64,000 nt of DNA from Thermodesulfobacteriota bacterium (GCA_965243595.1 OZ251569.1:1877907-1941906); one strand, 5' to 3'. Positions 1-30,375 are shown, counted from the first letter of the stretch. The notes: generated by a model from the sequence alone, not told the origin. Numbers and translations: made by a program.

Positions 1-2438
1 CACCCTCCGTCTCCCTCCGTACCGCCTCCATCGGAAGGCGACGGAGCGCTATCGGCTCCGCCGTCAGCCGCTCCGGCGTCGTTCGTTATCGGTATATTCC
101 CGTCTTTAACTCCGACGCCTCCCTGCGCACTCCTAAGGGACTCTCCGGACGAGACTGTCACGGTCACCCCGACTGCGCCGCTTGGAATCTCCTCGGCAAG
201 CGTGAGCGTGACGGTGTTGCCCGAAACGCTGAGACCGCTGACCTTTATGTTCTGGTATCTTCCCTCGGATACCCGATACCGAACTGCGAACGCGCCTGCG
301 GAAGGCTTCGATTCCTCGTCGAGGGCAACGCTGTAAGCAAGCACTATCATGTTCCTCGCGGCCGCGCTCACAGAAGCGCTCTCAATCCGCGGAACCATCG
401 GAGGACTGTCGACCGTCATCCCAGTCCTGGGTCCTATGTCCCCTTCCCCGCGGACTATGGGCTCCGAAAGCTCCCCGTCCGTGTTCGTGTTTTTGGAAAC
501 TATCGGAAACAGCCCCAGATAGTTTCCCTCCACGCTCGGCTTCGCGTCGTTTCCAGCGAACGACTCCACCAGGTTGACCGCGTAATTGTCCGCGTTGTTC
601 CCGCTGAACTCGGCAAGCGTCGTTCCCGACCCCCACAGGGTTATCGCATGTTTGACGAAACCTTCCCCGCCGTACCCGAGATCGTTGCCCGTCACGCTCA
701 CTCCCTTCTGGTTTCTTATCTCGATTCTCGAAGTCGGATGACAGTTCCGGTGCCGGACGACATCGAAGGAACCTACCAAGGCATTGTTGATAAAAGTAGG
801 ATTATTATTGCTGGAGTAGCTCGCGACCACGTCCCCCAGCTTGACCGGAGGCCCGTCGGGGGGCATGGGCAGCGCAGGTCCGTCGTCAGGGTTCGGATAC
901 GGGAAATTCGGCACGTAAGACTGCCATATCCTGGGCTGAAGAAGCGCCTCCAGCCGCTCAACGCTCGCGTCGCCCGGAACCGAGGGAGACTGACACCAGC
1001 CCGCTCTTCTTCTGAACTGGCCAAAGATGGTGTAAAAGTACGGATAGCCGTCGTCGGAACCCAGCAGGCGGTTGCCCGTTATCGTTATCTTGACGTCGTC
1101 CGCGTTTCCCCGAATCTGTATCTGGCTTTCCGCAAACGGACTCGCCACGGCTGGAAACGTACCGGACGCGCTTCGTATCAGGTTGTTTCCGATGGTTATT
1201 CTTCCTCCTTCCGGAGTGCCTGCGACCCAGACCGGCACGTGGGTCGTTCCCTCAATGATGTTGTCCAGAATCTCGCCCTTTCTCACCGAGTGGAAACCTA
1301 TGGCGTACTGGGTGAGTTCACTGTAGTTCTGGGGAATTCTGTGCCCGTCCCCGTCGGTAATGAAATTCCCTTCGGAATCCCTGATGAACGAGGAATCGCG
1401 CCCGATCCCTATGTTGCGAAACGTGTTGCCCGTCACGTCCACCTCCACGGAACAGTTGTCGCCTCCGGGAAAGGCCCTGCCGTGCCAACGGTTCTCCGGC
1501 TCGGCCCGCAACGACATCACGGCGACTTCCTGCGTTCTCTCGAACGTGTTGCGGACGATCTCGATGCCCGTGAGATTCTCAGAGTCGGGACACGAGTCCG
1601 CCGAGCCGTAATACCTGGGATTTATCAGGACGTGACCGAGACGGTCGCCGAGCCAATCCTGACCCACAAAGTAAACGTCCCACTTGCCGTTGTCCGAATC
1701 CCACCTGGTCGCCCTGCCGCTGTTGTCCACGGGAAAGCCGTCCTCGTTCGAAACCACCGTGTTGGGATTGTAGACCCGATATCCGGAGGACGGGTTGCGA
1801 TTTTCAAAAAAGTGGTGGAAGACCCCGTCTATATGCTTTTCGAGCTCCGACCGGGTGAGCTGCCCCGTATACCCGCTGTAGTCGTGGTCCTTGTCCGGCC
1901 TGTCGGCGGGCTCGCTCAACGCCTTTCTCGAGAGAAGAAAGCCGGGAATGGTGACGTCGCGGAAGTAAAGCTCGATCGGACCGTTAAGGGTACCCGAGAA
2001 GGGAGTTTGTATAGCCGACGACTCCCCGTCCGCGAGAACCGTGACCTTGCCGATCTCCAGGTCCCTGAACGTCAGACCTTCAACCCTGACGTCCCTGCTT
2101 CTTATCTGGATGAGAAGCTCGCCCGTTATCACCGCGTCTCCGTCCATGAACGGGTCCTTGCGAAGCGTAAGCGGACGCCGGAGGATGAGTTCCCCTATGT
2201 CGTCGTAAGTCCCCGGGGCAAACTCAATAGCATCCTCGTCTCCGACATATGTGGCCGCATCCTCTATGATCGCCTGCAGAGACTTCGGCTTGGAAGACTG
2301 CGGCGTATCCTCCGGCAGACCGTCTATGCTCGACTGAACGTTGGCCGGACTCACCTTGATCACCGCCGCCCGGGCAACTCCCGACACAAGCAGGAAGAAA
2401 ACCGCCGCACTCAGAAAACATCCCGTTCTCACACTCAT
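1..2438 (-). CDS. Secreted parallel beta-helix repeat surface protein, paralog A (C-terminal end lies beyond the window edge)
   Basis: The minus frame is open from ATG 2438..2436 towards the window edge. It was stop-checked by hand only for positions 1-120; the rest is inferred by alignment to copy B. It is absent from the ORF track because it has no stop in the window, and none of the listed minus ORFs here share its frame. The nucleotide sequence aligns with 4641-7054 and encodes the same signal peptide, MSVRTGCFLSAAVFFLLVSGVARA. Confidence 0.8.
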   Translation of the reverse strand, partial: MSVRTGCFLSAAVFFLLVSGVARAAVIKVSPANVQSSIDGLPEDTPQSSKPKSLQAIIEDAATYVGDEDAIEFAPGTYDDIGELILRRPLTLRKDPFMDGDAVITGELLIQIRSRDVRVEGLTFRDLEIGKVTVLADGESSAIQTPFSGTLNGPIELYFRDVTIPGFLLSRKALSEPADRPDKDHDYSGYTGQLTRSELEKHIDGVFHHFFENRNPSSGYRVYNPNTVVSNEDGFPVDNSGRATRWDSDNGKWDVYFVGQDWLGDRLGHVLINPRYYGSADSCPDSENLTGIEIVRNTFERTQEVAVMSLRAEPENRWHGRAFPGGDNCSVEVDVTGNTFRNIGIGRDSSFIRDSEGNFITDGDGHRIPQNYSELTQYAIGFHSVRKGEILDNIIEGTTHVPVWVAGTPEGGRITIGNNLIRSASGTFPAVASPFAESQIQIRGNADDVKITITGNRLLGSDDGYPYFYTIFGQFRRRAGWCQSPSVPGDASVERLEALLQPRIWQSYVPNFPYPNPDDGPALPMPPDGPPVKLGDVVASYSSNNNPTFINNALVGSFDVVRHRNCHPTSRIEIRNQKGVSVTGNDLGYGGEGFVKHAITLWGSGTTLAEFSGNNADNYAVNLVESFAGNDAKPSVEGNYLGLFPIVSKNTNTDGELSEPIVRGEGDIGPRTGMTVDSPPMVPRIESASVSAAARNMIVLAYSVALDEESKPSAGAFAVRYRVSEGRYQNIKVSGLSVSGNTVTLTLAEEIPSGAVGVTVTVSSGESLRSAQGGVGVKDGNIPITNDAGAADGGADSAPSPSDGGGTEGDGG

Positions 2439-2474: not shown

Positions 2475-2504
2475 ATTTTACCCCCCCCCCTTGTGATTTG
2501 TCAA
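2475..2504 (-). promoter_or_regulatory. Sigma70-type promoter of paralog A: TTGACA-N18-TAAAAT with G10 in the spacer
   Basis: On the minus strand, -35 TTGACA is at 2504..2499 and -10 TAAAAT at 2480..2475. The spacer is aatcacaa plus ten G (C10 on the plus strand at 2481-2490). The start codon lies 36 nt downstream of the -10. Confidence 0.6.
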
Positions 2505-2535: not shown

Positions 2536-4136
2536 CAATTGAGTCTGTCGGACTTTGCTAACGGACGAGGCAGATTAGCCTGATTGGAGCTGTTTGACAT
2601 CGAGAACCAGTCGTTTTGTTCAAGACGGCGTGATACCTTGGCAGTATATTGTCCGTTTTTGCGTGTGCGTTGCCGTCGATTCTCCCGTTTTTGCCTCCTC
2701 CCTCTCTAATTCGTCCTCAATGTGAACATCTTCTTCAGGTTGTAGCCTATACATACCAGACTCCACTCCCTGCTCACAGCCTTAATCCCTCGCATAAAAA
2801 ACCGGCCAAACCCCAGCACGTGTTTTATCACTCCGAACATCGGTTCCACAGTGCTTTTGCGCCTGGCGTATAACGCCTTGCCTTCCTCCGTCTCCAGAAG
2901 CTCCTTCATCTCATCCACTGCCGTCTTGTTCTTCGCTACGGCTTTGGGCGGCTTTGCCGACTTGTGACCTCTCCTCTCGTTGCGTATGGAAATCACCGGC
3001 CTGACCCCGTGCTCTGTGCAAGCCTCCACGTTCTTTTTGCTGTAGTAACCCGCGTCGGCCAAAAGATTGTCCGCCTCCCCCACCAGCCGCTCCGCCTCTG
3101 CCAGCTGCTCAAGGGCAGGCTCCATCTCCCGCTTGTCGTTGCCGTTGTGCGTCACGTGCCTGCCCACTATCATCCGGCTCTCGGTGTCCACCATCGCCTG
3201 AACGTTGTAACTCTGCTCGTATCCTCCAGTGCTCACCGACATGATCCGTGACTGCTCATCCGTAAGATTAACCCTGTCCTTCTCCGTCGGCCCGGGCTGA
3301 GGCTCCCTGGGTTTGGGGCCTGGTATCTTGCGCCCGTCGCGTCGTTCCTTGGCCCTGCGCTCTTCCATCTTCTCCTCATACTGCTTTCTCTCTCGTTCGT
3401 ATCTGTGCTCCGCTCTGCGCTCAAGCTCCCGCTTCGCGTCGCTCAAAGCCTCAAGACGCTCACTGCGACTGTTTAACTCCTCGGGAATGTCTATTCCGTC
3501 GGGACTCTCGCTGTTGTCCGCCTCCTGTGCCTTACGCATAAGCTCCCTTATCTCCCTGCGTATGCGCTTGTCCACCTTGCGTATCTGTTTCCAGCTCAAG
3601 TTCTTGCGCCTCGACGCGTTGGCCTTTATCTTCGTGCCGTCCACACTCACCGTCCCCATCTTGAGAATCCCCATCGCGTGAGCCATCACGAGAATCTGCC
3701 CGAACAACCCCTCAAGCTGCTCCAAAAACCTCTTGCGGAAACTGTTTATGCTGTCGTGGTCGGGATGGTTGTTGGCGCAGATATACCTGTACGCAAGACT
3801 GTCGTATGTAGCCTGCTCAAGCTTGCGGCTGGAAAACGTCCCCGTGGCATATCCGTAAAACAGCAAGGCCACCATCATGGACGGGTGATACGCCCTGGAG
3901 CCCCTGCCCGAATACGCCTCCGTCAAATCGCTCAGGTCCAGTTGCGCCACTATCTCCACTACGAAACGGGCCAGATGCCCTTCGGGCACGTAATCATCCA
4001 CCCTCGCGGGCAACATGCTTGGCGTGGACCGATCAAACGTAACGAATTCAGGCATGGTTCTCTCTCCTGTAGTTCTTGTGATTCTCTTATTTTACCTCGA
4101 TTGAACATAGACGCTAAAGTCCGACAGACTCAATTG
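2536..4136 (-). mobile_element. IS1182-family insertion sequence, apparently intact (1601 bp)
   Basis: Perfect 21-bp terminal inverted repeats: caattgagtctgtcggacttt at 2536-2556 is the reverse complement of 4116-4136. They bracket a single DDE transposase ORF. Confidence 0.8.
2706..4055 (-). CDS. IS1182-family DDE transposase
   Basis: 449 aa. The N-terminal region (YSGRGSRAYHPSMMVALLFYGYATGTFSSRKLE...DHDSINSFRKRF) and the C-terminal DDE region (NVQAMVD..., LLADAGYYS, YARRKSTVEPMFGVIKHVLGF) are typical of IS1182/IS5-like transposases. Confidence 0.85.
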   Translation of the reverse strand: MPEFVTFDRSTPSMLPARVDDYVPEGHLARFVVEIVAQLDLSDLTEAYSGRGSRAYHPSMMVALLFYGYATGTFSSRKLEQATYDSLAYRYICANNHPDHDSINSFRKRFLEQLEGLFGQILVMAHAMGILKMGTVSVDGTKIKANASRRKNLSWKQIRKVDKRIRREIRELMRKAQEADNSESPDGIDIPEELNSRSERLEALSDAKRELERRAEHRYERERKQYEEKMEERRAKERRDGRKIPGPKPREPQPGPTEKDRVNLTDEQSRIMSVSTGGYEQSYNVQAMVDTESRMIVGRHVTHNGNDKREMEPALEQLAEAERLVGEADNLLADAGYYSKKNVEACTEHGVRPVISIRNERRGHKSAKPPKAVAKNKTAVDEMKELLETEEGKALYARRKSTVEPMFGVIKHVLGFGRFFMRGIKAVSREWSLVCIGYNLKKMFTLRTN

Positions 4137-4480: not shown

Positions 4481-7054
4481 TTACAGGCAAGGAAAAAACG
4501 CGTTTCTCTCCTTTGAAACCGGCTTGTAAATCAGACGGCGGCCTTTCTTCTTTCTCCCGATGACGAACCCAAACGGAAGCATTACGAGCAGAAGCGTTAT
4601 GAAGCTGTTTCCTCCGCTCCCCGAAAAAGCCAGGGAACATCCCCCCTCTCCGCTAGTGCCTGCGCCTGGATCCTGCGTGCCCGGGTCGTCGGTCGTCGGG
4701 TCCGACCCTGCGACGTCCGTTACGGGTTGTTCCTGGGCACTCGCCGCGACGCCGCCCTGCTTGCTCCTTAAAGCGGCGGCTCCGTCGGGAACCGCGTAGA
4801 TCACGGTCAGGCCGCTAGTGCCGCCTGGAATCTCTCTGGGAAGCGTGAGCGTTACGGTGCTGCCCGAAACGCTGAGACCGCTGGCCTTTATATTATCGTA
4901 CCTCCCCCCGGATGCCTGATACCGGACCGTGAACGCCGAGGCTGGGGGAGGGGATTCCTCGTCAAGCGCCGCGGCGTACGTAACCACGACCATGTTCCTC
5001 GACTCGCTCACCGAGGCGCTCTCAATCCGCGGAACCATCGGAGGACTGTCGACCGTCATCCCCGCCCTAGGTCCTACGTCCCCCTCCCCGCGGACTATGG
5101 GCTCAGAAAGCTCCCCGTCCGTGTTCGTGCTTTTGGAAACTATCGGAAACAGCCCCAGATAGTTTCCCTTCACGCTCGGCTTCGCGTCGTTTTTGGCGAA
5201 CGACTCTACCAGATTGACCGCGTAATTGTCCGCGTTGTTCCCGCTGAACTCGGCAAGCGTCGTTCCCGACCCCCTCAGGTTTATCGCATGTTTGACGAAA
5301 CCTTCCCCGCCGTACCCGAGATCGTTGCCCGTCACGCTCACTCCCTTCTGGTCTCTTATCTCGATTCTCGAAGTCGGATTACAGTCCCGGTGCCGGACGA
5401 CATCGTAATTACCTACCAAGGCATTGTTGATAAAAATAGGAGTACTGCCGGAGTAGCTCTCGACCACGTTCCCCAGCTTGACCGGAGGCCCGTCGGGAGG
5501 CATGGGCAGCGCAGGTCCGTCGTCAGGGTTCGGATACGGGAAGTTCGGCACGTAAGACTGCCATATCCTGGGCTGAAGAAGCGTCTCCAGTCGCTCGATG
5601 CTCGCGTCGCCCGGAACCGAGGGAGACTGACACCAGCCCGTTCTTCTTTTGAACTGGGAAAAACGAGTGAAAAAGTATGGATAGCCTTCATCGGAACCCA
5701 GCAGGCGGTTGCCCGTTATTATTATCTTGACGTCGTCCGCGGTTCCCCGAACCTGTATCTGGCTCTCAAACTTACTCGCCACGGCCGGAAACGTACCGGA
5801 CGCGCTCCGTATCAGGTTGTTTCCGACCGTTATTCTTCCTCCTTCCGGAGTGTCTCTGATCCAGATCGGCGCGTGGGTCGTTCCCTCTATGGTGTTGTCC
5901 AGAATGTTGCCCTTCCTCACCGAGTGGAAACCTATGCCGTACCTGTTGAGTTCTCCGTAATTCTGAGGAATTCTGTGCCCGTCCCCGTCGGTAATGAAAT
6001 TCCCTTCGGAATCCCTGATGAACGAGGAATCGCGCCCGACCCCTATGTTGCGAAACGTGTTGCCCGTCACGTCCATCTCCACGGAACAGTTGTCGCCTCC
6101 GGGAAAGGCCATCGGGTCGGCCAACAACGACATCACGGCGGTTTCCTGAGTTTTCTCAAACGTGTTGCGGACGATCTCGATGCCTGTGAGATTTTCAGAG
6201 TCGGGACACGAGTCCGCCGAGCCGTAATACCTGGGATTTATCAGGACGTGACCGAGCCTGCCACCGAGAGCATCCTGGCTCACATAGTAAACGTCCCACT
6301 TGCCGTTGCCCGAATCCCACCTGGTCGCCCTGCCGCTGTTGTCCACGGGAAAGCCGTCCTCGTTCGAAACCACCGTGTTGGGATTGTGGACCAGATACCC
6401 GGAGGACGGACTGCGATTTTCAAACCAGTCGGAGTAGACCCCGTCTATATGCGCTCCGAGCGCCGATTCGGTGAGCTGCCCCGTATATTCGCTGTAGTCG
6501 TGGTCCTTGTCCGGCCTGTCGGCGGGCTCGCTCAACGCCTTTCTCGAGAGAAGAAAGCCGGGGATGGTGACGTCGCGGAAATAAAGCTCAATCGGACCGG
6601 TAAGGGTACCCGAGAAGGGACGCTCCCTAGCCGACGACTCTCCGTCCGCGAGAACCGTGACCTTGCCGATCTCCAGGTCCCTGAACGTCAGACCTTCGAC
6701 CCTGACATCCCTGCTTCTTATCTGAATCAGAAGCTCGCCGGTTATCACCGCGTCCCCGTCCATGAACGGGTCCTTGCGAAGCGTAAGCGGACGCCGGAGG
6801 ATGAGTTCCCCGATGTCGTCGTACGTTCCCGGAGCGAACTCAATAGCATCCTCCTCTCCAACGTACGTGGCGGAATCCTCTATGATCGCCTGCAGAGACC
6901 TGGGTTTCGAAGACTCCGGCGTATCATCTGGCAGACCGTCTATGCTCGACTGAACGTTGGCCGGGCTTACCTTGATCACCGCCGCCCGGGCAACTCCCGA
7001 TACAAGCAGGAAGAAAACCGCCGCACTCAGAAAACATCCCGTTCTCACACTCAT
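4481..7054 (-). CDS. Secreted parallel beta-helix repeat surface protein, paralog B, with SwmB-like Ig module and C-terminal Cys-containing membrane-anchor/sorting-like tail
   Basis: 857 aa with a signal peptide. Recurrent beta-helix rungs are visible (IEIVRNTFEK, VDVTGNTFRNIG, GNILDNTIEG, ITVGNNLIRS, IIITGNRLLG, VSVTGNDLGYGG). It also has a ...VSGSTVTLTLPREIP... module and the tail GGCSLAFSGSGGNSFITLLLVMLPFGFVIGRKKKGRR. Confidence 0.85.
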   Translation of the reverse strand: MSVRTGCFLSAAVFFLLVSGVARAAVIKVSPANVQSSIDGLPDDTPESSKPRSLQAIIEDSATYVGEEDAIEFAPGTYDDIGELILRRPLTLRKDPFMDGDAVITGELLIQIRSRDVRVEGLTFRDLEIGKVTVLADGESSARERPFSGTLTGPIELYFRDVTIPGFLLSRKALSEPADRPDKDHDYSEYTGQLTESALGAHIDGVYSDWFENRSPSSGYLVHNPNTVVSNEDGFPVDNSGRATRWDSGNGKWDVYYVSQDALGGRLGHVLINPRYYGSADSCPDSENLTGIEIVRNTFEKTQETAVMSLLADPMAFPGGDNCSVEMDVTGNTFRNIGVGRDSSFIRDSEGNFITDGDGHRIPQNYGELNRYGIGFHSVRKGNILDNTIEGTTHAPIWIRDTPEGGRITVGNNLIRSASGTFPAVASKFESQIQVRGTADDVKIIITGNRLLGSDEGYPYFFTRFSQFKRRTGWCQSPSVPGDASIERLETLLQPRIWQSYVPNFPYPNPDDGPALPMPPDGPPVKLGNVVESYSGSTPIFINNALVGNYDVVRHRDCNPTSRIEIRDQKGVSVTGNDLGYGGEGFVKHAINLRGSGTTLAEFSGNNADNYAVNLVESFAKNDAKPSVKGNYLGLFPIVSKSTNTDGELSEPIVRGEGDVGPRAGMTVDSPPMVPRIESASVSESRNMVVVTYAAALDEESPPPASAFTVRYQASGGRYDNIKASGLSVSGSTVTLTLPREIPGGTSGLTVIYAVPDGAAALRSKQGGVAASAQEQPVTDVAGSDPTTDDPGTQDPGAGTSGEGGCSLAFSGSGGNSFITLLLVMLPFGFVIGRKKKGRRLIYKPVSKERNAFFPCL

Positions 7055-7124
7055 GCCTTATCCCCTCCTCGACAGAAAAATTAAATAGAGATTTTACCCC
7101 CCCCTTAATGATGTGTCAAGAGCT
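4641..7124 (-). repeat. Tandem duplication unit B (gene plus promoter core); partner is 1-2509
   Basis: See unit A. The copy offset is 4640 at the 3' anchor, 4634 at position 1471 and 4616 at the start codons, so the copies differ by in-frame indels. Confidence 0.85.
7091..7119 (-). promoter_or_regulatory. Sigma70-type promoter of paralog B: TTGACA-N17-TAAAAT with G8 in the spacer
   Basis: On the minus strand, -35 TTGACA is at 7119..7114 and -10 TAAAAT at 7096..7091. The spacer is catcattaa plus eight G (C8 on the plus strand at 7097-7104). The SD GAGGAGGGG precedes ATG 7054. Confidence 0.6.
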
Positions 7125-7149: not shown

Positions 7150-7179
7150 TTGACAGGGAAACCATTTGCCAAATACTAT
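7150..7179 (+). promoter_or_regulatory. Candidate bamD promoter TTGACA-N18-TACTAT, only 8 nt from the ATG
   Basis: TTGACA at 7150-7155, TACTAT at 7174-7179, ATG at 7188. It is divergent from the paralog B promoter. Confidence 0.45.
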
Positions 7180-7187
7180 ATGAAGTC

Positions 7188-7868
7188 ATGAAAATCCCCG
7201 CGAAAACCGTTCTGGCTCTCCTCGCCGCGCTTCTTTTCGTCTCCTGCGGCGGCAAGAAGGCGATCTACGAGGGAACCGCCGAGCAGCTTCACGACGAAGC
7301 GATCCGGGAACTCGACAAGAAAGGCCGCTTCATATTCGGCGGAACCAACTACGACAAGGTGTTCGAGATACTCAAGGAAATACAGATCAGGTACACCTAC
7401 ACTCCCTACGCCGCCCTGGCTGAACTGAGAACCGGCGACGTCTATTTCAGGAAAAGAGAGTACTCCCAGGCCGCGACCGAGTACGAAAACTTCATAAACA
7501 ACCACCCGGGCCACGAGAATCTGGACTACGCGACGTACCGGCTGGGACTCTCTTTCTACGAAACGAGGGCCGGCAAGGACAGGAACTACTCAAAGACCCT
7601 GCAGGCGATGAACTGGTTCGCTTCGCTTCGGGAGAACTACCCCGACTCTCCGTACGCGGAGGAAACGCTGGAGAAGACAAGGGAATGCAGGAAGATACTG
7701 GCGGAGAGGGAAATCTACATAGGCAAGTTCTACCACAAGAAGAAGAACTACAGGGCCGCGGTCGAAAGGTTCGAGAACGTTCTGGAAAACTATCCCGAGA
7801 CCAGGTACGCGCCCAAGGCCGCCGAACTTCTGGAAAAATCCCGAAAGAAGCTGTCTGAGAAGTCCTAG
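7188..7868 (+). CDS. bamD: Outer membrane protein assembly factor BamD (YfiO-like TPR lipoprotein)
   Basis: The lipoprotein signal peptide MKIPAKTVLALLAALLFVSC starts at ATG 7188. TPR-like repeats follow (ELRTGDVYFRKREYSQAATEYENFINNHP, IGKFYHKKKNYRAAVERFENVLENYP). The track's upstream extension from 7113 would bury the signal peptide. Confidence 0.8.
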   Translation: MKIPAKTVLALLAALLFVSCGGKKAIYEGTAEQLHDEAIRELDKKGRFIFGGTNYDKVFEILKEIQIRYTYTPYAALAELRTGDVYFRKREYSQAATEYENFINNHPGHENLDYATYRLGLSFYETRAGKDRNYSKTLQAMNWFASLRENYPDSPYAEETLEKTRECRKILAEREIYIGKFYHKKKNYRAAVERFENVLENYPETRYAPKAAELLEKSRKKLSEKS

Positions 7869-7897: not shown

Positions 7898-8257
7898 CTA
7901 GCCGAACTTCTTCTCTATGTCTTCCTGTTCTTCCTTGCAGTTTATGCAGAGAGTGGTTTCGGGCCTGGCTATGAGCCTTTGTTCCGAGATGTCGTCCCCG
8001 CACACCTCGCAGATTCCGTAGGAACCGTCTTCGAGCCTCGTAAGCGCGTCCCTTATCTTGCGAAGCAGCTTTCTCTCCCTGTCCCTTTCCCTGAGCTCCA
8101 GAACCCTGTTGGATTCGGAAAGTGCCCTGTCCAGCGGGTCGGGGAAAGTGCTGGACCCCCTGCCCATCCTCTCCAGAGTCTCGTAGGCGATGCCTGCTAT
8201 GTCGGACATCTTCTTGAGCAGGATGGTTCTTACGGTCTCTTTCGTTTCGCTTCGCAC
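7898..8257 (-). CDS. dksA: DksA/TraR-family C4 zinc-finger transcription factor
   Basis: 119 aa with a coiled-coil N-terminus and the zinc finger CEVCGDDISEQRLIARPETTLCINC. Confidence 0.8.
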   Translation of the reverse strand: MRSETKETVRTILLKKMSDIAGIAYETLERMGRGSSTFPDPLDRALSESNRVLELRERDRERKLLRKIRDALTRLEDGSYGICEVCGDDISEQRLIARPETTLCINCKEEQEDIEKKFG

Positions 8258-9214: not shown

Positions 9215-10260
9215 ATTCCTTCAGAACCATAGAGTGGAAAGACGACAGGGTCGTCATGATAGACCAGAGAAAGCTTCCCGGCGAGGAGGTCTACGTCGAA
9301 TGCTCCACTTTCGGGGAAGTGGCCGAATGCATAAGGAACATGGTCATCAGGGGAGCGCCGGCCATAGGAATCGCGGCCGCCATGGGAATGGCGCTGGGCG
9401 CCCGGGGACTGGGAGACGACCTGGGACGGGAGGAATTCGAGGCGGAGATGAAGAACATCTCCGAACATCTCTCCCTGACCCGGCCGACGGCCGTGAACCT
9501 CTTCTGGGCGCTCGACAGGATGAACCGTCTTGTACGCGAATCGGGAGAAGCCGGAACGAGGGAGAAGAAGAAGCTTCTCGCGGCCGAAGCCGTCGAGATG
9601 CAGAAAGAGGACCTCGAGACCTGCGTGAGAATCGGGGAGCACGGGGCGGAGCTCATCGAACCCGGGTCGGTCGTCCTGACCCACTGCAACGCGGGCGGAC
9701 TGGCCACCGCGGGTTACGGAACGGCGCTCGGGGTGATCCGGTCGGCTCACGGCGGCGGGAAGAACATAAGCGTCATATCGTCCGAAACCAGGCCGGTGCT
9801 CCAGGGAGCGAGACTTACGACCTGGGAACTTGAGCGCGACGGAATTCCCGTCCGGCTGATAACCGACAACATGGCCGGATACCTGATGAGCAGGGGGATG
9901 GTGGATTCGGTCGTGGTCGGGGCCGACAGGGTGGCCATGAACGGAGACGCGGCCAACAAGATAGGAACCTATTCACTCTCGGTCCTGGCCGGGCACCACG
10001 GCATTCCGTTCTACGTCGCCGCCCCGACCTCGACCATAGACGGCGGGTGCGCGAGCGGAGACGACATTCCCATAGAACAGAGAAATCCCGAAGAGGTGAC
10101 GCACATAGACCGAAAGCGCATAAGCGCCGAAGTGGAGGCGATAAATCCCGCGTTCGACGTAACCCCGTGGGAGAACATCGAATGCCTGATAACCGAAGCC
10201 GGGATACTGAGAAAACCTTACGCCGAATCGCTGGAGGCGCTTAAGAAGAAAGGTCAGTAA
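9211..10260 (+). CDS. mtnA: S-methyl-5-thioribose-1-phosphate isomerase (eIF-2B alpha/beta/delta-like family)
   Basis: MNSFRTIEWKDDRVVMIDQRKLP...IRGAPAIGIAAA...GADRVAMNGDAANKIGTY. ATG 9211 overlaps the prmA stop (ATGA). Confidence 0.8.
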   Translation: MNSFRTIEWKDDRVVMIDQRKLPGEEVYVECSTFGEVAECIRNMVIRGAPAIGIAAAMGMALGARGLGDDLGREEFEAEMKNISEHLSLTRPTAVNLFWALDRMNRLVRESGEAGTREKKKLLAAEAVEMQKEDLETCVRIGEHGAELIEPGSVVLTHCNAGGLATAGYGTALGVIRSAHGGGKNISVISSETRPVLQGARLTTWELERDGIPVRLITDNMAGYLMSRGMVDSVVVGADRVAMNGDAANKIGTYSLSVLAGHHGIPFYVAAPTSTIDGGCASGDDIPIEQRNPEEVTHIDRKRISAEVEAINPAFDVTPWENIECLITEAGILRKPYAESLEALKKKGQ

Positions 10261-10730
10261 CTTTCCCTTTCGATTTCTTCCTGGGCTTCCACGCTCAGCT
10301 TCGTAAAGGGCATGGCCATCAGCCTCTCTTCGCCTATCTTCTCCCCCGTGACCTCGCAGAAGCCGTATTCCCCGCTCTCGATTCTCTTTAGCGCGTCGTC
10401 TATCTGCTGGAGCTTGCTGCGTTCCCTGTTCGAAAGCGTGAGTGCAAGCTCCCTCTGCCTGTCCTCCGACGCGTGGTCGTAGAAATCTCCGACGTTGAAG
10501 CGCAGGTGGTCGGATTCCTCTCTCACCGACCTGACGACGTCCTTCAGCAGCTCCCTTCTCATCTCCGAGAGCATCTTGGTCATGCGGGAGAGAAACTTCT
10601 TGGTGTACTTCCTGGGATTGGTCTTCCTGGAAGACGGGCTCTCGGGCGTTTCGGAGGAAGGATTTTTTTCCGCCCGAACCTTTCCGGACGCGGCTTTGGC
10701 CTGAGGCCGTTTCTTGTTCGCTCTGGGCAA
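10254..10730 (-). CDS. DksA-like protein lacking the zinc-finger cysteines, with a basic Lys/Pro/Ser-rich N-terminal extension
   Basis: The C-terminus GFCEVTGEKIGEERLMAMPFTKLSVEAQ aligns with the dksA finger but keeps only 1 of 4 Cys. The start is inferred as TTG 10730 behind SD GGGAGGA, downstream of a TTGACA-N16-TAACTT promoter (10793..10766). Confidence 0.6.
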   Translation of the reverse strand: MPRANKKRPQAKAASGKVRAEKNPSSETPESPSSRKTNPRKYTKKFLSRMTKMLSEMRRELLKDVVRSVREESDHLRFNVGDFYDHASEDRQRELALTLSNRERSKLQQIDDALKRIESGEYGFCEVTGEKIGEERLMAMPFTKLSVEAQEEIERESY

Positions 10731-10894
10731 GACATTCCTCCCGGCGGTGAATATCCGAGTTTCTAAAGTTAGATTAAGAAAAATTTTTGTCAATACGGCG
10801 TCGGGAGCAGGAACAGACCGCGGGCGGCCCGTCATGTTGCCATATCGTCCCCCGCGGTTAAAATGTCCCCTTAAGCCGTTTCGGCGTCCGTCAG

Positions 10895-14861: not shown

Positions 14862-14903
14862 TTTATAACTACAAACGCCCGCTATGTCAAATAGGGGGGG
14901 GGG
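14862..14903 (-). promoter_or_regulatory. Promoter TTGACA-N17-TATAAA for the cytidylyltransferase operon, abutted upstream by a 10-nt G/C homopolymer
   Basis: On the minus strand, -35 is at 14890..14885 and -10 at 14867..14862. G10 on the plus strand at 14894-14903 lies between the panD stop (14911) and the -35. Confidence 0.5.
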
Positions 14904-26617: not shown

Positions 26618-26647
26618 CGACGGAGAAGAAAAGAGGGGAAGAAAAAA

Positions 26648-26760
26648 AGGGCAGCTACCTACTTTCCCACTCCTGAAAGGAGCAGTATCATCGGCCTACA
26701 AGGACTTAACTTCCGGGTTCGGGATGGGACCGGGTGCTTCCCCTTCAGCATAGCCACCCT
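26648..26760 (-). rRNA. rrf: 5S ribosomal RNA (113 nt), not linked to 23S/16S
   Basis: The reverse complement reads AGGGUGGCUAUGCUGAAGGGGAAGCACCCGGUCCCAUCCCGAACCCGGAAGUUAAGUCCUUGUAGGCCGAUGAUACUGCUCCUUUCAGGAGUGGGAAAGUAGGUAGCUGCCCU. It carries the universal CCGAAC...GAAGUUAAG and GAUGAUACU...GGGAAAGUAGGU blocks. Helix I pairs AGGGUGGCUA with UAGCUGCCCU, followed by U7. Confidence 0.9.
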
Positions 26761-26769
26761 AGAATTTTT

Positions 26770-26797
26770 ATTTTACGGCGGCGGGGAAAAATGTCAA
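26770..26797 (-). promoter_or_regulatory. Dedicated 5S rRNA promoter TTGACA-N16-TAAAAT
   Basis: On the minus strand, -35 is at 26797..26792 and -10 at 26775..26770. The predicted transcription start site (TSS), about 26763, is within 2-3 nt of the mature 5S 5' end. Confidence 0.6.
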
Positions 26798-30346: not shown

Positions 30347-30375
30347 ATTTTAAAGCACGGGGGGGATATTGTCAA
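30347..30375 (-). promoter_or_regulatory. Promoter of the rpsU-dnaG-rpoD operon, TTGACA-N17-TAAAAT (spacer contains C7)
   Basis: On the minus strand, -35 is at 30375..30370 and -10 at 30352..30347. The spacer is atatcccccccgtgctt. Confidence 0.6.

Follow-up and report, generated by a model that had tools for sequence, protein, structure and literature searches.

Poly-G tracts in the promoter spacers of a multigene beta-helix protein family as candidate phase-variable switches in Thermodesulfobacteriota

The run of ten G residues upstream of paralog A, one of two related genes in the 64,000-nucleotide stretch of Thermodesulfobacteriota DNA analysed here (the window), is probably the variable part of a sigma-70-type promoter spacer, through which slippage would bring about phase variation of a secreted beta-helix protein. 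That a homopolymer in the promoter spacer may act as the phase-variable switch of a surface protein had been proposed in a first-pass annotation of this DNA, and the comparative data now give the proposal support, in the form of a layout found in 21/21 promoters and of length differences between orthologous tracts.

Results

Anatomy of promoters A and B

Direct reading of the minus strand at 2475-2504 bore out the first-pass description of TTGACA and TAAAAT hexamers enclosing a G10 run in an 18-nt spacer, and the sister gene was confirmed to have the same hexamers, with G8 and a 17-nt spacer, at 7119..7091. The elements of the two promoters are as follows.

2475..2504, minus strand: promoter A, TTGACA-aatcacaa-G10-TAAAAT, spacer 18 nt (direct read)
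2504..2499, minus strand: -35 hexamer of promoter A, TTGACA (direct read)
2490..2481, minus strand: G10 tract of promoter A, GGGGGGGGGG (C10 on the plus strand), the proposed slippage-prone element
2480..2475, minus strand: -10 hexamer of promoter A, TAAAAT (direct read)
7119..7091, minus strand: promoter B, TTGACA-catcattaa-G8-TAAAAT, spacer 17 nt (pattern scan)
7119..7114, minus strand: -35 hexamer of promoter B, TTGACA (direct read)
7104..7097, minus strand: G8 tract of promoter B, GGGGGGGG (direct read)
7096..7091, minus strand: -10 hexamer of promoter B, TAAAAT (direct read)

Promoter A is the top-scoring sigma-70-like site, with 11/12 matches, and its -10 hexamer is separated by 36 nt from the ATG of paralog A at 2438. 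The ATG of paralog B, at 7054 on the minus strand, lies 3' of promoter B. When the upstream regions of the paralogs were aligned, the homology between A and B was found to start approximately 10 nt upstream of the -35 hexamer. A conserved motif, CCGKTNRAWTYT, directly follows the -10 hexamer in all family promoters, at the predicted transcript start (2455-2474 and 7070-7090 in the window, minus strand), and could be a candidate regulator site or a leader element.

Promoter B stands back to back with the bamD promoter (7150-7179, plus strand), and this layout is kept in the related locus L041. The true start of bamD appears to be the ATG at 7188 on the plus strand, giving a protein of 226 aa with the lipobox FVSC. 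Since this ATG lies only 9 nt past the -10 hexamer of TTGACA-N18-TACTAT (7150-7190, plus strand), the bamD mRNA is probably leaderless. Two DksA/TraR-type zinc-finger genes (7898-8257 and 10254-10835, both minus strand) are located less than 3 kb apart, and both are present in L041. The presence of genes for BamD, PrmA, DksA, PanC/PanD and similar proteins in the window indicates a bacterium with an outer membrane.

The region between the two paralogs is occupied by a mobile element.

2536..4136, minus strand: insertion sequence with perfect 21-nt terminal inverted repeats (2536-2556 and 4116-4136)
2706-4055: DDE transposase (Pfam DDE_Tnp_1 and DUF772)

One end of the insertion sequence is 31 nt upstream of the -35 hexamer of promoter A; the element is context and lies outside the switch. 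In L040 and L054, family genes likewise have transposase genes as neighbours. Two open reading frames of 598 aa antisense to the paralogs (648-2444 and 5288-7084, plus strand) were considered and rejected as shadow reading frames that arise from codon usage, because codon-shuffled controls gave equally long stop-free stretches.

The probable housekeeping promoter of the organism

A scan for TTGACA-N15-19-TAAAAT found four sites in the 64-kb window against 0.00 expected from 100 shuffles. Two of these are unrelated to the family, one at 26797..26770 (5S rRNA) and one at 30375..30347 (upstream of rpsU-dnaG), so that the scan recovered both of the TTGACA-N16/17-TAAAAT promoters that the first-pass annotation had assigned to 5S and rpsU. 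The 5' end of the 5S rRNA, as delimited by the Rfam match, follows 9 nt after the end of the -10 hexamer at 26797..26770. With TTGACA and TAAAAT standing before 5S rRNA and rpsU, the hexamer pair is very probably the housekeeping promoter of this organism, as judged from the sequence.

The spacers of these promoters are AT-rich at first and then G/C-rich (TTTTTCCCCGCCGCCG for 5S and ATATCCCCCCCGTGCTT for rpsU), and the family promoters are built likewise, which may be a lineage-wide promoter trait. The 5S rRNA gene itself (26646-26797, minus strand) is solitary and has its own TTGACA-N16-TAAAAT promoter; no 16S rRNA, 23S rRNA or tRNA gene was found anywhere in the 64-kb window. In the rpsU-dnaG promoter (30347-30375, minus strand) a C7 run is present within the 17-nt spacer.

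Chance expectation for G/C runs

The window has a GC content of 59.8% and contains exactly three G/C runs of at least 8 nt (2481-2490, 7097-7104 and 14894-14903), compared with an expectation of 5.8 for independent bases and of 2.7 for an order-3 Markov model. For runs of at least 10 nt, two were observed and 0.5 and 0.18 were expected from the same two models (P = 0.115 and 0.015, respectively). The idea that G/C runs are enriched in number was rejected, since the count is not above the composition-based expectation, and on the same ground the earlier remark that a 10-nt homopolymer is highly unusual for this window is a weak argument. As the run count is within chance, the signal resides in the placement of the run inside the spacer and in its conservation in homologs. 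The same annotation had reported three runs of at least 8 nt, all of them in promoter regions; its count is correct, but the third run lies outside the spacer and is not conserved.

14894-14903, minus strand: C10 run, between the panD stop codon, which it directly follows, and a -35 hexamer 3 nt downstream

The promoter beside this run, TTGACA-N17-TATAAA, precedes a gene pair for an NTP-transferase and a CDP-alcohol phosphatidyltransferase. Two relatives that are 93% identical here (L055 and L056) keep the promoter and lack the tract, reading CCCGTCCGCCGGGCT in its place, and the run was for this reason rejected as a conserved switch. Being not conserved, it is weak as support for a general rule of promoter tracts, and it may be incidental.

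The gene family and its product

The two paralogs were delimited by translation.

1..2438, minus strand: coding sequence of paralog A (P0002, 847 aa at full length), which runs off the window start
4481..7054, minus strand: coding sequence of paralog B (P0001, 857 aa)

The reading frame of paralog A begins with MSVRTGCFLSAAVFFLLVSGVARAAVIKV at 2438 and encodes a signal peptide, MSVRTGCFLSAAVFFLLVSGVARA/AV, followed by a beta-helix body, an SWM/Ig-like repeat and a C-terminal anchor signal. The proteins of paralogs A and B are 84% identical, and their coding sequences hardly differ over the first approximately 50 nt, of which the first approximately 40 nt are conserved in relatives as well. Paralog B gave a Pfam match to SWM_repeat (1.9e-07). 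The AlphaFold2 model of this protein is a parallel beta-helix with a mean pLDDT of 67.8 and core blocks at 80-92, and thus has the fold that characterises the corresponding class of carbohydrate-active or carbohydrate-binding proteins; a Gly/Asp/Thr-rich region of the protein is of low confidence. Foldseek related the model to PL6 alginate lyases, chondroitinase B, GH110 galactosidases and phage tailspikes (5z9t, 7o84, 1ofm, 8yk3 and 2vbk) with probabilities of 0.9-1.0 and TM values of only 0.2-0.36. Weak matches to NosD, in the N-terminal part, and to Chondroitinas_B were seen in family proteins. No Pfam or NCBIfam enzyme family was above cut-off for the family proteins, and a profile search against PDB sequences returned nothing at E <= 0.1.

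The C-terminus has a family-wide layout of an invariant G-G-C-x-L-A (GGC[SA]LA), a hydrophobic helix and a K/R cluster, which resembles sorting signals of the exosortase or rhombosortase type. An NCBIfam scan at E <= 1, with the full proteins and with the last 79 residues, gave no match to a sorting domain (PEP-CTERM, GlyGly-CTERM, MYXO-CTERM and similar). In paralog B the C-terminus (4481-4650, minus strand) continues for approximately 20 extra residues past the basic cluster. The model and the sequence features of the family protein are most simply read as those of a secreted, cell-anchored surface protein that would bind or cleave glycans, and we infer a surface location for the products of both paralogs.

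The family gene is a hotspot of divergence. Between window 4481-7054 and L041:6001-8565 the identity in 300-nt windows is 57-92%, compared with 95-99% for the neighbouring genes, and it is lowest at the 3' end of the family gene. The family is also narrow, with 52 proteins at E <= 1e-5 among 5.8 billion clusters. Loci from the sample of one relative contain at least 10 family copies, arranged in tandem on two contigs, and both of these multi-copy contigs share 100%-identical stretches with OZ242012.1. A scan of genome contigs with a single protein as query found no relative, and with the family alignment as query it found six loci in one MAG (OZ242012.1). Exact-protein look-ups with paralog B and with the bamD reading frame as first delimited gave no record. 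The 64-kb window holds no family paralogs other than A and B and no notable tandem repeats. Tandem arrays combined with a surface-type product are the usual look of contingency genes, and suggest that the family belongs to them.

Family-wide comparison of promoters

Homolog DNA was taken from seven other assemblies, and all G runs of at least 7 nt were listed in the window and in loci L040-L054, together 253 kb of DNA in which some loci overlap. Identical DNA was removed before promoters were counted, L042 being 100% identical to L043/L047 and L049 to L044, and therefore not independent. In the core family, 21/21 distinct promoters have the form TTGACA-N6-9-G8-13-TA[AG]A[ACG]T, and the start codon is placed 32-43 nt 3' of the -10 hexamer in each of them. 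All copies have a perfect TTGACA, and in all 21 the G run is uninterrupted; this invariance is partly inherent in how the sites were collected, yet no core-family gene with a visible upstream region lacked the run. The mean majority-base frequency is only 0.62-0.66 in the 12 nt upstream, in the part of the spacer that is not G and in the 20 nt downstream. The proteins encoded behind these promoters are down to approximately 50% identical to paralog B, and the retention of an uninterrupted homopolymer across such protein divergence implies selection on the run itself. The distributions of run and spacer length among the 21 promoters are as follows.

Run length, number of promoters: G8, 1; G9, 7; G10, 9; G11, 2; G12, 1; G13, 1
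Spacer length, number of promoters: 15 nt, 4; 16 nt, 3; 17 nt, 2; 18 nt, 5; 19 nt, 5; 21 nt, 1; 22 nt, 1

The run length centres on 9-10 whether the remaining part of the spacer is 6, 8 or 9 nt, and since it stays near this value whole subgroups of the family have spacers of 15-16 or of 18-19 nt. Such off-optimum subgroups could represent a mutational equilibrium in which most copies are off, or could mean that something besides the spacing to TTGACA matters.

Only two G runs of at least 8 nt in the 253 kb are untied to family promoters, namely window 14894-14903 and L045:3842-3851, and three further runs of this length stand upstream of distant subfamily genes. Some of the distant subfamilies (approximately 41-43% identity) have ordinary promoters and no tract, and the most remote paralog (28% identity) is without a tract as well. 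Other distant subfamily genes have TTGACA-AAT-G9/10-TCGGG-TACYTT after a (GT)n repeat, with a second, canonical promoter approximately 50 nt further downstream, and a (GT)n repeat at the -35 hexamer is likewise found in some outer family members. At L046:2790-2830 and L050:7820-7850 the (GT)n repeat abuts the -35 hexamer and is followed by AAT-G9/G10, with the second promoter, TTGACA-N17-TATTAT, approximately 50 nt downstream. The C10 run at L045:3842-3851 falls within the coding sequence of a family paralog; the segment around it does not align to the counterpart of this gene in a related strain, and translational phase variation could take place at the run. Metagenome contigs were also scanned with GCTCTTGACAMATCA-N9-20-TAAAAT, and the 39 loci obtained were all chance look-alikes of a promoter with no G tract.

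The constancy of the run near 9-10, whatever the remaining spacer, would also be expected if it were a fixed promoter element, that is a G/C-rich spacer block favoured by RNA polymerase, the length of which drifts neutrally. The 5S and rpsU promoters, with their spacers of the same AT-rich and then G/C-rich build, point in this direction too. A preference for composition does not, however, require an unbroken homopolymer, and the run is unbroken in 21/21 promoters while its neighbours vary. Spacers of 15 and of 21-22 nt are moreover hard to square with a constitutive promoter of the sigma-70 type, and indels are denser in the tract than in its flanks, as described below. We therefore regard a fixed element as an unlikely explanation.

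Length differences at orthologous tracts

Tract length in related strains had been named by the first-pass annotation as a check on its proposal, and it differs at 4/6 orthologous promoters whose flanks are 96-98% identical (for the window and L041, the flanking genes are 95-99% identical and the two are collinear over 8.2 kb). The six pairs are given below.

Window promoter B and L041: G8 with TAAAAT (spacer 17 nt) and G13 with TAGAAT (spacer 22 nt)
L053:3646 and L047:1174: G12 and G9
L053:16056 and L054:16996: G9 and G10, the only internal indel in a 230-nt alignment
L050:7841 and L046:2820: G10 and G9, with a 14-nt (GT)n difference abutting the -35 hexamer in strains that are 98% identical
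L053:6598 and L047:4109: G10 and G10
L053:9952 and L042:5953: cG9 and G10, an edge substitution

In the four differing pairs an indel falls in the tract, or within approximately 10 nt of it, and the background of gap openings in the same alignments is 0.2-0.6 per 100 nt. By our own calculation, 4/6 against this background corresponds to a binomial P of approximately 2e-4.

All of these length differences are between assemblies and are taken from consensus sequence, in which a homopolymer may be wrong by approximately one base, especially at the 7-16x coverage of L053 and L054. It could accordingly be argued that the tract is real and of constant true length and that the differences are consensus errors of the assemblies: several relatives come from low-coverage assemblies (7x, 12x and 16x) whose contigs have names of the form ctgN_Nx, and the one-base differences between G9 and G10 are within plausible error. 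With 3 and 5 bases, the differences between G9 and G12 and between G8 and G13 exceed what such errors can explain. Furthermore, the scaffold-style PANK22-1 assemblies (L041, L051 and L052) also give G9, G10, G11 and G13, which means that length variation is not confined to assemblies whose contigs are named in the long-read style, and two strains show a 14-nt difference in the adjoining (GT)n repeat as well. Consensus error as the source of all the variation is thus very unlikely.

That the tract is instead a regulator site, or part of an activator-dependent promoter under protein control (MerR-like, or with the -35 hexamer replaced as in Bordetella fim), is likewise very unlikely in spite of 18-19 nt being the commonest spacer class (10/21) and of the conserved CCGKTNRAWTYT after the -10 hexamer as a possible factor site, because a homopolymer lacks the dyad symmetry that MerR-type operators require, the perfect TTGACA in all copies leaves no need for a -35 surrogate and spacers of 15-22 nt fit no single fixed geometry; a regulator may, for that matter, act alongside slippage, and a CRP homolog is reported to do so at the T. 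pallidum tpr genes (PMC7864442).

Proposed switch mechanism

In the reading that we prefer, slippage in the spacer of a sigma-70-type promoter, the homopolymer would gain or lose one G by slipped-strand mispairing during replication. Each such step would alter the distance between TTGACA and TAAAAT by 1 bp and their relative angle by approximately 36 degrees. The promoter would then be strong at a spacer of 17 nt, weaker at 16 or 18 nt and essentially off at 15 nt or less and at 19-20 nt or more. In the window, paralog B (G8, 17 nt) would have the optimal spacer and be fully on, and paralog A (G10, 18 nt), one step off, would be reduced; the copies of the relatives at 15, 19, 21 or 22 nt would be off. 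With a tract of its own for each family member, every paralog could switch independently, heritably and reversibly, and a population would be a mixture of cells with different combinations of surface proteins.

For the poly-G promoters, we infer their use, their effect on expression, the rate of switching and its reversibility. Spacers spread over 15-22 nt are consistent with most family copies being off the optimum; the many spacers of 15 or 19 nt are also consistent with the spacing to TTGACA not being what counts.

Discussion

Phase variation by homopolymers in promoters is textbook knowledge for Neisseria, Treponema, Mycoplasma and Bordetella, all of them cultured pathogens. In Mycoplasma hyorhinis, the vlp genes form a family of surface proteins with a poly-A tract in each -35/-10 spacer, and the independent switching of the members gives a combinatorial surface. 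This is the closest analogue in overall logic to what is proposed here. The vlp system differs in having poly-A, in encoding lipoproteins of a wall-less bacterium and in the size-variable repeats of its coding regions, whereas the family described here has poly-G and no such repeats were seen in it. In Bordetella, the poly-C tracts of the fim2 and fim3 promoters, which control a surface structure, are located at or upstream of the -35 hexamer or an activator site. The promoter of Neisseria opc has a poly-C tract of this kind too, and its position has been described (PMC7864442). Both opc and fim2/fim3 resemble the C10 run at 14894-14903 and the tracts of the distant subfamilies, which are outside the canonical spacer. 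Their tracts alter the geometry between activator and polymerase, while the main tract here is inside the canonical spacer.

The porA gene of N. meningitidis has a poly-G tract in the spacer of a sigma-70-type promoter, the length of which sets the expression, with an experimentally established optimum at 17 nt (PMC7864442). The likeness to the present promoters is that of a G homopolymer in the promoter spacer of a surface protein. However, porA is a single porin gene of a host-restricted pathogen, whereas we describe a multigene beta-helix family with tracts up to G13 and spacers of 15-22 nt, known from sequence alone. In Treponema pallidum, tp0126 has poly-G between the -35 and -10 hexamers, and it has been established experimentally that transcription is best at 17 nt (PMC7864442). 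Promoter poly-G tracts of 7-11 G are also found for each of the T. pallidum genes tprE, tprG, tprJ, tprF, tprI and tprL, and vary within and between isolates (PMC7864442). The tpr genes are comparable to the present family as paralogs of which several members have a promoter poly-G of their own. They differ in that the tpr tract is just upstream of the transcription start and not clearly in the spacer, in contrast to the tracts inside the spacer here, and the tpr products, beta-barrel proteins of the outer membrane, have no relation to the beta-helix family. Promoters A and B share with the porA, tp0126 and vlp type a homopolymer of at least 8 nt between recognisable -35 and -10 hexamers, and, as in that type, the tract is polymorphic between close strains with conserved flanks.

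For a neighbouring housekeeping gene, the nearest named homologs belong to Candidatus Dadabacteria and Thermodesulfobacteriota, and the NCBI taxonomy lists Dadabacteria as a class within Thermodesulfobacteriota. The genomes of the lineage are 2.1-2.3 Mb. The contig names of several relatives (ctgN_Nx_c or _l) look like those of metaMDBG, a circumstantial indication that is consistent with sponge-holobiont assemblies; sponge-holobiont projects with PacBio HiFi data have employed this assembler and described Dadabacteria MAGs (PMC12648040). A literature search linking Dadabacteria and phase variation found no paper. The mechanism that we propose is thus a known one, and the comparative data support the instance as new, namely a multigene beta-helix family that would be switched by poly-G spacers in an uncultured Thermodesulfobacteriota/Dadabacteria lineage.

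We lean, with some reserve, towards the wider reading that this small-genome lineage of Thermodesulfobacteriota (within or close to the class Candidatus Dadabacteria) may maintain a repertoire of dedicated contingency genes, in which tandem, fast-diverging beta-helix proteins with private poly-G switches would make up a combinatorial surface. To our knowledge, nearly all known phase variation based on simple sequence repeats comes from cultured, host-adapted pathogens, and this reading, if true, would extend it to an uncultured environmental or symbiotic lineage. If the switch is confirmed, the tract length per read would be a marker, readable from sequence, of surface heterogeneity at the population level. 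It would also be a warning to annotators and assemblers that such tracts are biologically variable and not errors to be removed by polishing. For the organism itself, confirmation would mean that the beta-helix proteins are an interface under fluctuating selection, from phage, host or grazers.
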